Sequence record: PQ850610.1
Source: Escherichia phage JacquesWildberger_Bas92
Reading direction: 5' to 3' (one strand)
DNA: 64,000 bases
Shown: positions 31,419-59,530 of the stretch, piece after piece
Layout: each line of letters opens with the position of its first letter
Position numbering within the stretch: the first letter of the stretch is position 1
Notes under the pieces: model-generated
Database searches by the model: none
Told to the model about the DNA's origin: nothing
The model's input: the letters and a program-made list of their open reading frames with translations, nothing else
Program-made: the position numbers and the translations under genes

Positions 31419-31446
31419 AAGCCACCCGAAGGTGGCTAAGCTATAA
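31419..31446 (-). terminator. rho-independent terminator after SSB-like gene
   Basis: on - strand GCCACC-ttcg-GGTGGC followed by ttttttcg. Confidence 0.6.
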
Positions 31447-31458
31447 CAAGGAGAGTTA

Positions 31459-32205
31459 TTAGAATGGGCTGTCGTTGTCGTCTTCGTAGGTAGAAGCAGG
31501 CTCTTTATCAATCGTAGGGATTGAAGGGGTAGCTTCTTTCTGTTCTGTTTCAGAAGCACGAGTAATTTCACGACCAGCCAGAGGAATGTTCTTAGCGTCA
31601 TTAGCTTGAGTAAGCAGGTTGCGCTGGAACGGGAACATCAGTTGATAAGATGCTACGTTCTCATCGGTTTCCGCATACGGTTCGAAGAATACCAGAGGAC
31701 TACGAGCTTCACCAACTGCTGCACGATATTTGGTTGGGATTGGAGAAATGGTTTTGATGGAGTTTTTAACTTCACCAGCTTTGTTAGTGTAGGAGTTAAC
31801 CAGAATGTTAACAGGCTGACCTAACAGCACATCCTTAAACCAAGACAGATCACCTTTCAGTGCTTGAATGCTTGGGTCAATCATCTTGCAAAGATCAAGG
31901 ATACCAGAGTTCTTAGCTCGTGGGTTTACATCATAACTCTTGAACTGGCAAGCAGGACGTGGTTCTAATGCCTTACCATCGGAATCTTTACCCGTAGCAT
32001 CAACACCAATCAGCTCGAAAGCCAAATCCATACGGAAAGCTGGATTCTTAGGAGTTACTGCTTTGGTCTTCGGGTCAATCCAAGGGTCACGATTGTGAAC
32101 ACCCAAACCTACTACACGAACAATACGTGCTTCGTATTCACCATCAGGGATTACATCGTAGTTGGATTTACGAGAAGAAGTTGCGATAGTTGGAATCATA
32201 GACAT
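31459..32205 (-). CDS. single-stranded DNA-binding protein-like
   Basis: 248 aa; disordered C-terminal tail ending in acidic tip EDDNDSPF (SSB-type C-terminal motif). Confidence 0.5.
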   Translation of the reverse strand: MSMIPTIATSSRKSNYDVIPDGEYEARIVRVVGLGVHNRDPWIDPKTKAVTPKNPAFRMDLAFELIGVDATGKDSDGKALEPRPACQFKSYDVNPRAKNSGILDLCKMIDPSIQALKGDLSWFKDVLLGQPVNILVNSYTNKAGEVKNSIKTISPIPTKYRAAVGEARSPLVFFEPYAETDENVASYQLMFPFQRNLLTQANDAKNIPLAGREITRASETEQKEATPSIPTIDKEPASTYEDDNDSPF

Positions 32206-32264
32206 ATTTTAATTTCCTTATTTAATTTGAAAGATTGTTGCTCTCTTTGAGCGGTTATGTATAG

Positions 32265-32273
32265 TATACATTA
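32265..32273 (-). promoter_or_regulatory. TAATGTATA promoter-like element upstream of SSB-like operon
   Basis: exact 9-mer on - strand ~60 nt upstream of ATG 32205. Confidence 0.5.
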
Positions 32274-32336
32274 CGCTTATACCGATAAGAGTACTATATA
32301 ATATAAGTATCTTTGGTAGTAGATATAACACACTAG

Positions 32337-32345
32337 TAATGTATA
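32337..32345 (+). promoter_or_regulatory. orphan TAATGTATA element facing a ~280-nt non-coding stretch
   Basis: exact 9-mer on + strand; no + strand ORF downstream. Confidence 0.35.
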
Positions 32346-32389
32346 TATTGTATAGCTGATAAAGTTATTGCAGGCTTGTATATTGGGCA

Positions 32390-32520
32390 ATTCATAGAAT
32401 CCCTTGCAAGTACCGAAGGGCAGGAGCCACCTGCGAGATAAAAATAGAGAATTAAGGAATCCTTGATTTAGGTTGTAGGGACTCCTAGGGACTTTGATTC
32501 TCTATTTAAAAGAATAAATA
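32390..32520. repeat. repeat-rich non-coding region (origin/regulatory candidate)
   Basis: direct repeats tagggact x2 (32476, 32486), gaatcc(c)ttg x2, 11-bp inverted repeat aaatagagaat/attctctattt flanking them. Confidence 0.35.
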
Positions 32521-33112
32521 ATTACTATATCTAATACTAAACAGACTGAAACAAAGATAAGAAACTTCTTATAAATACTCATTACTTATCATCTAAATAG
32601 TTAACTAATCTCTGATATAAAGAAGTTTAAATCAAGCATCCATCACAAACATAGTCTCCACTAAGAGACTCTTGTAACAAACGATTTTGTTCCTCTGAAT
32701 ATAGAGAATTTACTAATTCTTTTAACTCTGAAAGAGTGATGAAATCAATAGTATTTCCATTATCTAAAATAGAAGAGTTAAGTAAATATTCATTGTCTTT
32801 AATTTTATTAATCATTCTTCATTTCCTTTTACTTCAGCGTAGACTTTGATAATGCCCTTAAGAACTTCCTTAGAAGCAATAGCACTTTCTTCAGAGGTGT
32901 GAATAGTAGAAAACTCTTTCTTTCCAATCTTGTAAGTGTGAACCCAAATCATACTTATTCCTCGTATTCCCAATTTCTTTCATAATATCCAGAGTTATAA
33001 TTTAGAGCGCATCTCTCAGCCTCTTCTATGTCATCAGTGTTTAGGATATTTACCCACCCACCAACTTCATCAAAACCTTCTTCCTCTTCGTTAAACCATA
33101 CACTATACTTTT

Positions 33113-34105: not shown

Positions 34106-35950
34106 TTAGTGTGTATGCATCCAGTTTAACCCAATCTGACAATCAGAAGCCAGAGGACATTCCATGTTCAAGTACTCACCAGCCTTCTTAACACAAAGCT
34201 CGGTGTACTCTTTGAGTTTCTGTACATCATTACGGTTCACTGAGAACTGGCCCTCATCGTGCATATCAATTACCTTAGCACAACGAACTCCATCTTTCTC
34301 AATCCACTTGTTAAGGAACATCATAGCATATTTCATAACAACAGCACCAGCACATTGCAGGAGTGTGTTAAGGGCTTTATGAACCATAACCTTACCAGTG
34401 GCATCCCGTCTCATTGTAATCTTACGACCATCAACGCCAATCAAATACCCTTGAGCAGCTTTCTCTGTCATACGATCAATGAGGATTGCAATACATGGGT
34501 TCTCTGCCAAGAAGCGTGCTCGCATCACTGAACCTTCGTCAGCTCCACCACCTACGATTGAACCAAGCTTAGCATCACCAGCACCATAGTTAAACGCGTA
34601 GATAAACGTTTTAGCGTTGTCACGAGTAGGAAGACCAGCAAGTTTCTGGTTGTGGGAGTGGATATCACCTTCAAGAAGGATATCACGATACATAATAGCA
34701 GAAGCTAAACCACGTTCTGCCAGAGCTTTCTTAGCTGGATTATTCTCTTCGATTGCTTCAGCAAGCATATCCCTACACTCTTTAATGAGGTAGTGAGCGA
34801 GCATACGAAGTTCAAGTCCAGAACCATCATACCCTAAGAATACTTCTTTACCAGCGGGTATGTAATATTTGTAAGCACCTACAGGCTTATCTTTCTTCCC
34901 CGGCTTACCTTTCTCGTAAATTACGTTAGTACCTTTTCGTATATAACAACCATCAGGAACAACGTTAGTAATAACGAAAGGACGAGAGTGATCACTGTCT
35001 GAATTATAGTCAGACTCAAACAAACTGCGACACTCATGACCAAACAAACCACGGGAGGGAATATTAACCACGATACGATGTTTGAATCGAAAAGTTGGCG
35101 TAGCGCAGCTGTTAGCTTCTGCCGAAAGTTTACCATCTTCGCGTTCCTTTGCTATGAGTCCACTGATAAGACCTAGCCTGTGAGCCGCTACAACGCGCCT
35201 CTTAAGCAAACTTCCAACACTCCCTAGCTCGCCCCCTAACCCTTCTTCAAGAGTCTCCTCGAGGTTTGTAGGAGCTGTAGGCCACTTGTTTGAGGTAGCT
35301 AGTGCTATCTTAATCTCATCAAACGTGATAGGTCTACTTCGGTTAGGGTTTAAACCTAAACCAAACACATAAGCCTTCATATAGTTCTTAGTCTTAAACC
35401 TAAAATGCTTCTCTAAGAACCTCCTAATATCTGCGTCAACCATCTCGGCTGTCTGCTTCTGTTTAGCATTACCTCGCATCCAAGCTGAATACCATGCTTG
35501 GTATGTCCCATACTTTCGAATATCTTTCTTGATTTCAAAAGTATTCCAAGGTTTCTTTGATACGTTAAACTCTGGAGGAAGAAAACCCTCATCCATAAGG
35601 GCTTCTTTAACTCGTGCATCTTTCGATGGGTCAAAGTCTACATACTCAACACAGGTGAATGCTCCACCAATGTCTTCTCTCTTAAGGCCAACTCTATCAC
35701 AGTAGGCTTGAGGCCACTTCTGTAAAGCTCCAGACTTCTTAAATGGCTTCATATAAGTAGAGCCATCTAATCTCATCTTAGGTAAGAGAGGGATCAGTTC
35801 TTTGTCGATATTAACAATAATCTCTTTAAGGAGGTGAACATACCACCGAGCATTTCTTCGGTTGAAACTCACTCCGTGCTTCGCTTGCTTAGAGATTATA
35901 TCAGCGACAGTCATCTCTGTCAAAAATGGGAGAGCGTCCGGGTTGCTCAC
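34106..35950 (-). CDS. DNA polymerase, family A polymerase domain (no exonuclease domain)
   Basis: motif A DGSGLELR, motif B RDNAKTFIYAFNYGAG, motif C HDEGQF. Confidence 0.85.
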   Translation of the reverse strand: MSNPDALPFLTEMTVADIISKQAKHGVSFNRRNARWYVHLLKEIIVNIDKELIPLLPKMRLDGSTYMKPFKKSGALQKWPQAYCDRVGLKREDIGGAFTCVEYVDFDPSKDARVKEALMDEGFLPPEFNVSKKPWNTFEIKKDIRKYGTYQAWYSAWMRGNAKQKQTAEMVDADIRRFLEKHFRFKTKNYMKAYVFGLGLNPNRSRPITFDEIKIALATSNKWPTAPTNLEETLEEGLGGELGSVGSLLKRRVVAAHRLGLISGLIAKEREDGKLSAEANSCATPTFRFKHRIVVNIPSRGLFGHECRSLFESDYNSDSDHSRPFVITNVVPDGCYIRKGTNVIYEKGKPGKKDKPVGAYKYYIPAGKEVFLGYDGSGLELRMLAHYLIKECRDMLAEAIEENNPAKKALAERGLASAIMYRDILLEGDIHSHNQKLAGLPTRDNAKTFIYAFNYGAGDAKLGSIVGGGADEGSVMRARFLAENPCIAILIDRMTEKAAQGYLIGVDGRKITMRRDATGKVMVHKALNTLLQCAGAVVMKYAMMFLNKWIEKDGVRCAKVIDMHDEGQFSVNRNDVQKLKEYTELCVKKAGEYLNMECPLASDCQIGLNWMHTH

Positions 35951-36681: not shown

Positions 36682-36709
36682 AAAAGAAAAGGCCACCCAT
36701 TTGGGTAGC
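36682..36709 (-). terminator. rho-independent terminator
   Basis: on - strand GGCTACCC-aaat-GGGTGGCC followed by ttttctttta. Confidence 0.45.
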
Positions 36710-36715
36710 CTCATA

Positions 36716-37069: not shown

Positions 37070-37078
37070 TATACATTA
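37070..37078 (-). promoter_or_regulatory. TAATGTATA promoter-like element
   Basis: exact 9-mer on - strand 37 nt upstream of ATG 37033. Confidence 0.5.
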
Positions 37079-41035: not shown

Positions 41036-41107
41036 AACTCTCTCCTGTAAAATACAAACTCTTATTGTACTCTATATACATTTGAGAGTTACCATATCTA
41101 CTACCAA

Positions 41108-57777: not shown

Positions 57778-57852
57778 TGGCGTTCCCTCGTGGAATCGAA
57801 CCACGAATAAGAGCTTAGAAGGCTCCAGTTATATCCGTTTAACTAAGGGAAC
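57778..57852 (-). tRNA. tRNA-Arg (anticodon UCU)
   Basis: 75-nt cloverleaf: acceptor GTTCCCT/AGGGAAC, D stem GTTA/TAAC, anticodon loop CTTCTAA, T-arm CGTGG-TTCGATT-CCACG, encoded CCA. Confidence 0.85.
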
Positions 57853-59034: not shown

Positions 59035-59331
59035 TTACTTGTCGGCTTCAATCTCTTGATGCTTAGCTATAGCTACTCTCAAGTCCTCATTAGCACGAGT
59101 AAGGCGTAATACTTCATGGTTGAGATTCTGAAGACGCTTGTTTCTATCTTCAACTTGCGTAATAAGATCATTAAGAGTTTCTTTAACTTTCTCACTATAC
59201 ATCTCATCCACTCGGACTAGAGATTTGTACATTCTCTCCCAGCTTGCTGCTTTGTTCCTAAGGATAATAAATCCTATAACGCTGATAGTTAAACAGCTTA
59301 CAAAAAGGAATTTATATATCTCTAAAGTCAT
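59035..59331 (-). CDS. membrane-anchored coiled-coil protein (i-spanin-like topology)
   Basis: N-terminal TMD FLFVSCLTISVIGFIIL then coiled coil; immediately downstream of SleB-like gene. Confidence 0.4.
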   Translation of the reverse strand: MTLEIYKFLFVSCLTISVIGFIILRNKAASWERMYKSLVRVDEMYSEKVKETLNDLITQVEDRNKRLQNLNHEVLRLTRANEDLRVAIAKHQEIEADK

Positions 59332-59530
59332 ATTATTTACCCTTTATCAGAGATTAAAAGTAATATTATTTAAGTAAGTTATATTTAGTAAACTTATTTT
59401 CTAAGAAATTTTCAAAGGGTCTATATACAGAGCATTACCCATAGTCCCAGAACACTACCATCTTTTTCAATAAATTTACTAAGTGGTTGGTTTATAAAGG
59501 AATTTAGTTTGTCAAATCTGGCACTAGAGA

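Follow-up and report, generated by a model that had tools for sequence, protein, structure and literature searches.

The intergenic region upstream of the gp40 homologue of Escherichia phage JacquesWildberger_Bas92 (PQ850610.1) probably harbors a new, unannotated phage small-RNA gene, which would be transcribed from a seventh gp36 promoter and would share a bidirectional hairpin with the upstream operon. The DNA under study is a 64,000-nucleotide stretch of the phage (hereafter the window), and all positions given without another source refer to it. All 98 related phages in GenBank retain the candidate promoter and the ~160 nt that follow it (32352 to ~32510), as do diverged relatives from metagenomes. 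A preliminary description of the window had viewed the interval as either a replication origin with iteron-like repeats or a small regulatory RNA locus, an interpretation that our analysis supports in part. The regulatory RNA half has gained comparative support, since conservation and compensatory changes fit an RNA fold on the plus strand, and the iteron-origin half has gained none.

The intergenic region and its neighbors

Judging from its sequence matches, the window is a phiEco32-like coliphage. Its closest relative is Escherichia phage ManiMatter_Bas94, with 99.7% identity over 1.8 kb around the locus, and phiEco32, SU10 and about 60 further Gordonclarkvirinae coliphages are 95-99% identical, with 98 GenBank records matched in total. 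Every gene that flanks the intergenic region is carried on the minus strand. To the left lie the gp40 homologue, then lysis genes and then the phage sigma factor gp36, and to the right are small ORFs followed by a family A DNA polymerase gene (34106-35950), an arrangement that agrees with the earlier placement of the region between an SSB-like gene and the polymerase side. The features of the locus are as follows.

31420-31437, minus strand: strong intrinsic terminator, AGCCACCTTCGGGTGGCT then TTTTT, directly 3' of gp40
31459-32205, minus strand: gp40 homologue (phi32_40), an ORF with 99% identity to phi32_40; the gene served by P40
32206-32258, minus strand: gp40 mRNA 5' UTR, with the RBS AAGGAA and a small conserved hairpin, GCUC-AAAGA-GAGC
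32259-32297, minus strand: P40, a published gp36-dependent middle promoter, with the -10 motif TAATGTATA at 32265-32273
32313-32351, plus strand: unlisted gp36-type promoter, with the -35 element TTGGTAGTAGATAT at 32313-32326 and the -10 motif TAATGTATA at 32337-32345; faces away from gp40
32352-32510, plus strand: predicted non-coding RNA of ~160 nt, its 5' end placed from promoter geometry and its 3' end from the limit of conservation and the hairpin
32353-32367, plus strand: hairpin 1, UAGCU-GAUAA-AGUUA, followed by an invariant UUGCA at 32368-32372
32373-32412, plus strand: central hairpin module, version A; swappable, with B, B' or C in relatives
32420-32434, plus strand: hairpin 2, GCAGG-AGCCA-CCUGC, its stem invariant except in relative L041
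32442-32507, plus strand: long hairpin, with outer stem AAAUAGAGAAU/AUUCUCUAUUU and an interior of AAGGAAUCCUU and two TAGGGACT repeats
32438-32507, minus strand: the long hairpin as read on the other strand, then UUUUUAU; likely intrinsic terminator of the upstream operon
32511-32626, no strand: AT-rich stretch, not conserved; most relatives have unrelated AT-rich sequence or small ORFs instead

The sequence of gp40 has no match in Pfam, among PHROGs of assigned function or in the PDB. An AlphaFold (AF2) model of the protein, built on 27 homologues and with a pLDDT of 81.8, gave OB-fold matches, and nearly all Foldseek matches to the model were SSB, PriB and RPA proteins, though the matches were weak. 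The C-terminus of gp40 is acidic (DDNDSPF, with a family consensus of DDDxPF), and an acidic tip of this type is known from bacterial SSB. Considering gp40 an OB-fold, SSB-like protein is reasonable but not proven. Since a strong terminator directly follows gp40, P40 and gp40 look like a short, largely monocistronic transcription unit.

The preliminary description had found no plausible ORF in the intergenic region, and this was borne out. The plus strand has no ORF, the minus strand has only two 37-aa ORFs with GTG or TTG starts, and indels together with swapped modules of differing length break every frame in the relatives. The repeats described earlier are also present: the direct repeat TAGGGACT at 32476-32483 and 32486-32493, gaatcc(c)ttg at 32399-32408 and 32456-32464, and the inverted repeat AAATAGAGAAT/ATTCTCTATTT at 32442-32452/32497-32507, which is perfect over 11 bp or extends to 14 bp with one mismatch. 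The 8-mer TAGGGACT is not enriched across the window (four copies versus 1.7 expected), and the pair is kept in relatives. The claim that the region is AT-rich applies to its flanks, which are 20-30% GC, and not to 32350-32500, which forms an island of 43-45% GC.

The polymerase side of the locus has features of its own. Within its first 60 nt, the DNA polymerase ORF at 34106-35950 contains a perfect sigma-70 consensus on the minus strand (35895-35923; TTGACA-17 nt-TGaTATAAT, with an extended -10), which received a scan score of 12 out of 12. The polymerase gene in the Bas94 record (L002, 5707-7801) is a joined CDS of two pieces that enclose an endonuclease VII gene, and its counterpart in the window is a single uninterrupted ORF of 614 aa over 34106-35950.

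Two divergent gp36-type promoters, one published and one predicted

E. coli RNA polymerase carrying the sigma factor gp36 recognizes the consensus tAATGTAtA, in which AATGTA occupies positions -14 to -9. Transcription from this class of promoter is expected to begin 6-8 nt downstream of the motif and to be stimulated by gp79. The known gp36 promoters of phiEco32 are six in number, with P6, P13 and P26 being late promoters and P40, P58 and P68 being middle promoters (Pavlova et al. 2012, as relayed in PMC8948821, PMC4281155 and PMC12276001). The exact 9-mer TAATGTATA has five copies in the window versus 0.73 expected, and none of 100 shuffles reached that number. Divergent TAATGTATA elements had been reported for the intergenic region, and they are indeed found at 32265-32273 (minus strand) and 32337-32345 (plus strand). 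The reading of these elements as divergent promoters also gains substance, as one belongs to the published gp36 promoter P40 and the other to a conserved, unlisted element that resembles P68. Three of the four copies other than the plus-strand one correspond to P13, P26 and P40 by matched flanks, and the fourth, at 37070-37078 (minus strand), agrees with the remaining promoter, P58, in motif, strand and order. About 360 nt downstream of this fourth copy is a terminator-like hairpin, GAGGCTACCCAAATGGGTGGCCTT then TTCTTTT (36689-36712, minus strand), which suggests that the putative P58 homologue and the hairpin delimit another very short middle transcription unit.

The minus-strand element of the intergenic region is P40 as judged by sequence identity, and it is expected to drive gp40. 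An entry in the SU10 supplement, aagcgtaatgtatactatacataaccgctcaaagagagcaa, described as 'between CDS37 and CDS38', is the exact reverse complement of window positions 32237-32277. Because AATGTA occupies -14 to -9, the gp40 mRNA is predicted to start at ~32258. The 5' UTR of this mRNA includes the stretch GATTGTTGCTCTCTTTGAGCGG, which is present in 14 of 15 aligned phages, with one substitution in KBNP1711.

The plus-strand element has a -35 region as well as a -10 motif of the gp36 class. Its 14-mer, TTGGTAGTAGATAT, has just two sites in the 64 kb, the other being in the P68 homologue at 41107 (minus strand), and at both sites it stands exactly 10 nt upstream of the 9-mer. Cryo-EM work from 2025, in which P68 was bound by the gp36 holoenzyme, placed AATG at -14 to -11 and revealed contacts of -37G and -34A with the gp36 C-terminal domain; mutating these bases abolished transcription. 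In the plus-strand element, TTGGTAGTAGATAT spans -39 to -26 and supplies both -37G and -34A, and P40 has only AGTA at the equivalent place. GGTAGT and AATG(T/A)A persist in each of the 26 distinct versions of the element, diverged ones included, that were compiled from the GenBank phages and from copies on five diverged contigs. The combination GGTAGT-N16/17-AATG(T/A)A survives where the identity of gp40 is just 71-82%, and there the intervening bases are randomized.

By every available sequence criterion, then, the plus-strand element appears to be a twin of P68. It has no entry in the published promoter lists for SU10 and the phiEco32 group (lists other than the primary paper, Pavlova 2012). 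It has no downstream ORF on the plus strand, unlike P40, which lies upstream of gp40. The element is situated 64 bp from P40, faces the opposite direction and points against all neighboring genes. The plus-strand transcript start that had been proposed near 32352 agrees with the geometry of gp36 promoters. A scan of the region for sigma-70 promoters returned scores at chance level or below.

Conservation, fold and 3' end of the predicted plus-strand RNA

All 98 records contain the initial 305-321 nt of the intergenic region, and homology stops there in 95 of them; the last 100 nt of the region are common to only three records. In an alignment of 15 phages, the invariant or nearly invariant blocks are the gp40 5' UTR, the promoter (TGGTAGTAGATA and TAATGTATATA) and a core of ~100 nt at 32413-32512. 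Pairwise identity averages 0.91-0.98 for the core, 0.78-0.95 along the coding sequence of gp40 and 0.50-0.70 for the spacer and the module, and the core is just modestly more conserved than the best parts of gp40 (up to 0.95). Judged by this identity profile, conservation sets in at the promoter and extends to the base of the long hairpin. In several phages (EcM-vB1 [L009:770-930], ES17 and the myPSH phages), the spacer that separates P40 from the plus-strand promoter has an insertion of ~150 nt, with a 47-aa ORF annotated inside it, and these phages also carry module B.

The exact core in IMG/VR and metagenomes is confined to phiEco32-like contigs, and distant phages that carry gp40 (GAP52, Privateer, a 7-11-like phage, LAh_8 and several metagenomic contigs) have 0-150 nt upstream of gp40 and lack the element. 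A search with the gp40 protein recovered relatives of 59-83% identity, and the contigs for five of these carry diverged copies of the element. All 26 versions share a plan in which the GGTAGT-N16/17-AATG(T/A)A promoter is followed by a short leader and then by hairpin 1. After UUGCA come one or two hairpins of the module, then NGAAGGG and hairpin 2, and last the long hairpin in the form (G/A)(A/U)GAUAAAAAUAGAGAAUU ... GAUUCUCU.

The predicted fold of the plus strand has an energy of -45.8 kcal/mol (z -2.68), and that of the minus strand has an energy of -35.3 kcal/mol (z -1.46). Hairpin 1 occurs as seven stems in four unrelated families, all of which end exactly at UUGCA (UAGCU/AGUUA, UAGCU/AGCUA, UAGUU/AACUA, UAGA/UCUA, GAGUUA/UAACUC, CAUC/GAUG and UCUCU/AGAGG), and RNAalifold and explicit pair counting identified two pairs in it that are changed on both sides. 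The hairpin is short and AU-rich, and a 4-bp stem at the same position is also found in 35% of shuffles; given that rate, four independent families correspond to p of about 0.016. The recurrence of the hairpin 1 stem is supportive, but not overwhelming, evidence for an RNA fold.

Downstream of UUGCA is the central module, for which we found versions A (40 nt), B (67 nt), B' (33 nt) and C (32 nt) that are unrelated or partly related in sequence and that each fold as a hairpin. Module B is present in 12 of the 98 GenBank records and, by subtraction, module A in about 86. The versions do not track phylogeny, as illustrated by L017, whose gp40 is 100% identical to that of the window and which nevertheless has module B. 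Searched against all phages, module B had matches in the same phage group only, apart from chance hits to ICP1. Variation in module A is confined to the loop (AUA, ACA or UCA), module C has two compensatory pairs when L041 is compared with L042, and module B has a change between CUG/CAG and CCG/CGG. A (G/U)AUAAG motif occurs in the loops of the otherwise unrelated modules B, B' and C (L004, L005, L041, L042 and L046), the loop of module A has a looser AUAGAA, and GAUAA(A)-like strings are located in the hairpin 1 loop (32358-32364) and just after hairpin 2. The motif may be a shared recognition motif, or it may reflect chance in AU-rich loops.

Hairpin 2 is nearly invariant. In L041 its stem reads GCUGG/CCAGC, a compensatory change from A:U to U:A, and one loop base is C or A among the relatives. 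The single-sequence fold had contained a long-range helix, UUGCAGG/CCUGCGA, which was discarded because the L041 sequence breaks it while compensating in the local hairpin 2. In XT32, an A to G change in the long hairpin yields a G:U pair on the plus strand only. The same strand bias holds for every one-sided change: hairpin 1 in the window, the long hairpin of XT32 and a U:G in module C all give G:U on the plus strand and C·A on the minus strand. Variation across the RNA is concentrated in loops, and taken together these patterns support the predicted plus-strand RNA fold. Since the segment comprising the long hairpin and hairpin 2 is almost invariant, covariation neither supports nor contradicts its fold, and for the inner pairing of the long hairpin, where the sequence is invariant, alternative folds are nearly equal in energy.

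The long hairpin has an AT-rich stem that encloses a 38-nt interior, and a simple terminator scan missed it. On the minus strand its T-tract score is 4.18, compared with 4.1 for the gp40 terminator and 1.1-2.4 for the plus strand. As the minus-strand tail scores equal to that of the gp40 terminator, the long hairpin is likely the terminator of the upstream minus-strand operon. The stretch GATAAAAATAGAG is invariant in relatives, and the plus-strand tail is UAUUUAAAA, or UUUUAAAA in diverged relatives. For the plus-strand RNA the long hairpin would be a weak terminator at best, and there is no further plus-strand terminator over a distance of 5 kb in the window or over the 4 kb downstream in phiEco32. 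With a weak plus-strand tail and no other terminator, the 3' end of the RNA is uncertain and is the weakest part of the model; we place it at ~32510 because conservation stops there. In ECBP2, Bas88, EK010, Paul, XT32, L030, L041 and L046, both TAGGGACT repeats are one G shorter (GGGACT to GGACT), and this loss converts TCCTAGGGA to the perfect palindrome TCCTAGGA. The adjacent AAGGAATCCTT is also palindromic, with a center that varies (A, T or AA).

Searches with the predicted RNA returned the following. Rfam 15 gave no match for the window or for three relatives with the other module at gathering or permissive thresholds (the best E-value was at least 0.77 and spurious). A tRNA/tmRNA scan found nothing at the locus, and the sole Rfam or ARAGORN match in the window is an unrelated tRNA-Arg (anticodon TCT) at 57778-57852 on the minus strand. 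The RNA had no similarity to 5,426 E. coli genomes, and both versions of the RNA that were compared with the rest of the phage had only chance-level complementarity of 9-16-mers. The RNA does not have the profile of an Hfq-type trans-acting sRNA, given its weak plus-strand U tail, the lack of significant complementarity to the phage and the lack of an E. coli match (comparisons that operate above the length of short seeds). In the literature on this phage group, other than the primary phiEco32 transcription paper (Pavlova 2012), we found no RNA or origin described for the locus.

Interpretation and relation to known systems

The model we prefer has two transcription units that diverge from the spacer. 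On the minus strand, P40 and the conserved 5' UTR would drive the SSB-like gp40 as a short unit. On the plus strand, the holoenzyme of phage sigma factor and RNA polymerase would fire the unlisted promoter at middle times, starting at ~32352, to give a non-coding RNA of ~160 nt composed of the 5' hairpin, UUGCA, the exchangeable module, the GCAGG/CCUGC hairpin and the long hairpin. Promoter activity, the transcript ends and any function are predicted here from sequence. Read from the minus strand, the long hairpin would also terminate the upstream operon, and since it is shared by both strands, two convergent transcripts would overlap there. The function we favor is that of a structured small RNA that acts in trans or as an antisense partner for the upstream operon at its 3' end, with the exchangeable module possibly serving as a specificity element.

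A more specific version of this model is that the RNA is modular and that its central hairpin is a specificity cassette swapped between phages, by which it might serve as a decoy for, or an inhibitor of, a host defense or RNA-binding factor, or alternatively as a structured replication pre-primer. We regard this version as a long shot; if true, it would be the first case in this phage family of a non-coding RNA known to be expressed from the promoter of a phage-encoded sigma factor.

An alternative role for the locus is that of a transcription-activated origin, in which the gene-less plus-strand gp36 promoter fires into easily melted AT-rich DNA and the transcript opens the duplex or primes the leading strand. 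A promoter that has no downstream gene and opposes the local direction of transcription would fit such a role, and a middle-class promoter would fire as replication starts. The locus is in the replication gene cluster, where it adjoins the SSB-like gene and is 1.5 kb away from the gene for DNA polymerase, and positions 32503-32602, which could serve as the adjacent AT-rich unwinding element expected of an iteron origin, form the second least stable 100-bp duplex in the 64 kb (~4.7 sd below the mean). The least stable, at 59310-59409, is in the early-gene part of the window and has 21% GC over 150 bp. A structured pre-primer like ColE1 RNA II would also explain the conserved fold. Simple R-loop priming needs neither hairpin covariation nor swappable modules. 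The AT-rich stretch is not conserved and is reduced to ~40 nt in ECBP2-type phages, and related phages with the same replication genes do not have the region at all. The iteron-like repeats on which the earlier origin proposal was based do not amount to an iteron array (three or more direct repeats of about 17-22 bp), as there are only two 8-nt repeats, which lie inside a hairpin, and two repeats of 9-10 nt, with no direct repeat of 12 nt or more at up to one mismatch. Neither a DnaA box (TTATCCACA, up to one mismatch) nor an IHF site (WATCAANNNNTTR) is present in 32151-32700, and GC skew has no inflection at the locus and follows gene orientation only. The evidence for a transcription-activated origin comes down to location and low duplex stability, and we consider this role unlikely, though it is the leading competitor of the small-RNA reading.

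It is also conceivable, with a small probability in our estimation, that the locus makes no functional RNA. The long hairpin would then be a plain terminator, an idea favored by its minus-strand form with UUUUUAU scoring level with the gp40 terminator, and the plus-strand promoter would act at the DNA level, either as a convergent roadblock or insulator against read-through into P40 and gp40 or as a sink for the gp36 holoenzyme. Uniformity of the block might in that case reflect use as a recombination linker beside hypervariable genes, which would be in keeping with the highly variable gene content next to it (phosphoesterase, HNH and small ORFs come and go) and with the shuffling of modules and insertions among otherwise near-identical phages. 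The lack of covariation in most of the 3' domain is as expected if no RNA function is at stake. Compensatory changes and plus-only G:U pairs in four separate helices, however, would be unexpected for a transcript with no role. Moreover, the interior of the hairpin and the segment from GAAGGG to hairpin 2 are conserved far beyond the needs of a terminator, and diverged relatives hold the architecture despite sequence change.

phiEco32 is the model in which transcription is controlled by a phage-encoded sigma factor, gp36, together with gp79 as its partner, and phages related to it are often candidates for therapy. If real, a seventh gp36 promoter yielding a conserved structured RNA in place of a protein would be a player so far missing from a regulatory map that has been regarded as complete. 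P40 was already known; the plus-strand promoter and the putative RNA appear to be new relative to the published lists consulted here and to Rfam. That near-identical phages have different central hairpins suggests that the RNA interacts with a partner that is not the same in every host or phage, and if so, the RNA may be relevant to host range or to how the phages withstand bacterial defenses.

Comparison with the gp36 promoters of phiEco32 places the two elements differently. The minus-strand element is P40 itself. The plus-strand element, predicted from sequence, shares the exact -10 motif TAATGTATA and has the -35 region of P68 at equal spacing, but it is outside the published six, has no downstream gene and faces against the surrounding operons.

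Small non-coding RNAs of virulent phages have precedents in the species 1 and 2 RNAs of T4. Pseudomonas phage PA5oct has been described as encoding four ncRNAs (PMC7318152). Like those of PA5oct and T4, the RNA predicted here would be short, structured and non-coding, and it would be transcribed from a promoter of its own at an intergenic site of a lytic phage. It differs from them in that it has no sequence or Rfam relation to them, would be driven by a promoter for a phage sigma factor and has an exchangeable central module.

Transcription-activated origins include the phi1.1A/B, phiOL and phiOR promoters of T7 and the oriF and oriG middle promoters of T4, and the RNA II pre-primer of ColE1 is a structured RNA. 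The locus is similar to these systems in having a phage-specific promoter with no obvious gene, beside easily melted AT-rich DNA in a replication cluster, but its AT-rich part is not conserved and ~160 nt of predicted structured RNA intervene between the promoter and the AT-rich DNA. Finally, the long hairpin is like known bidirectional intrinsic terminators in that an A-tract and a T-tract flank it on opposite sides and in being positioned between convergent units, and it is unlike them in that its AT-rich stem surrounds a conserved interior of ~40 nt and its tail is good on the minus strand only.
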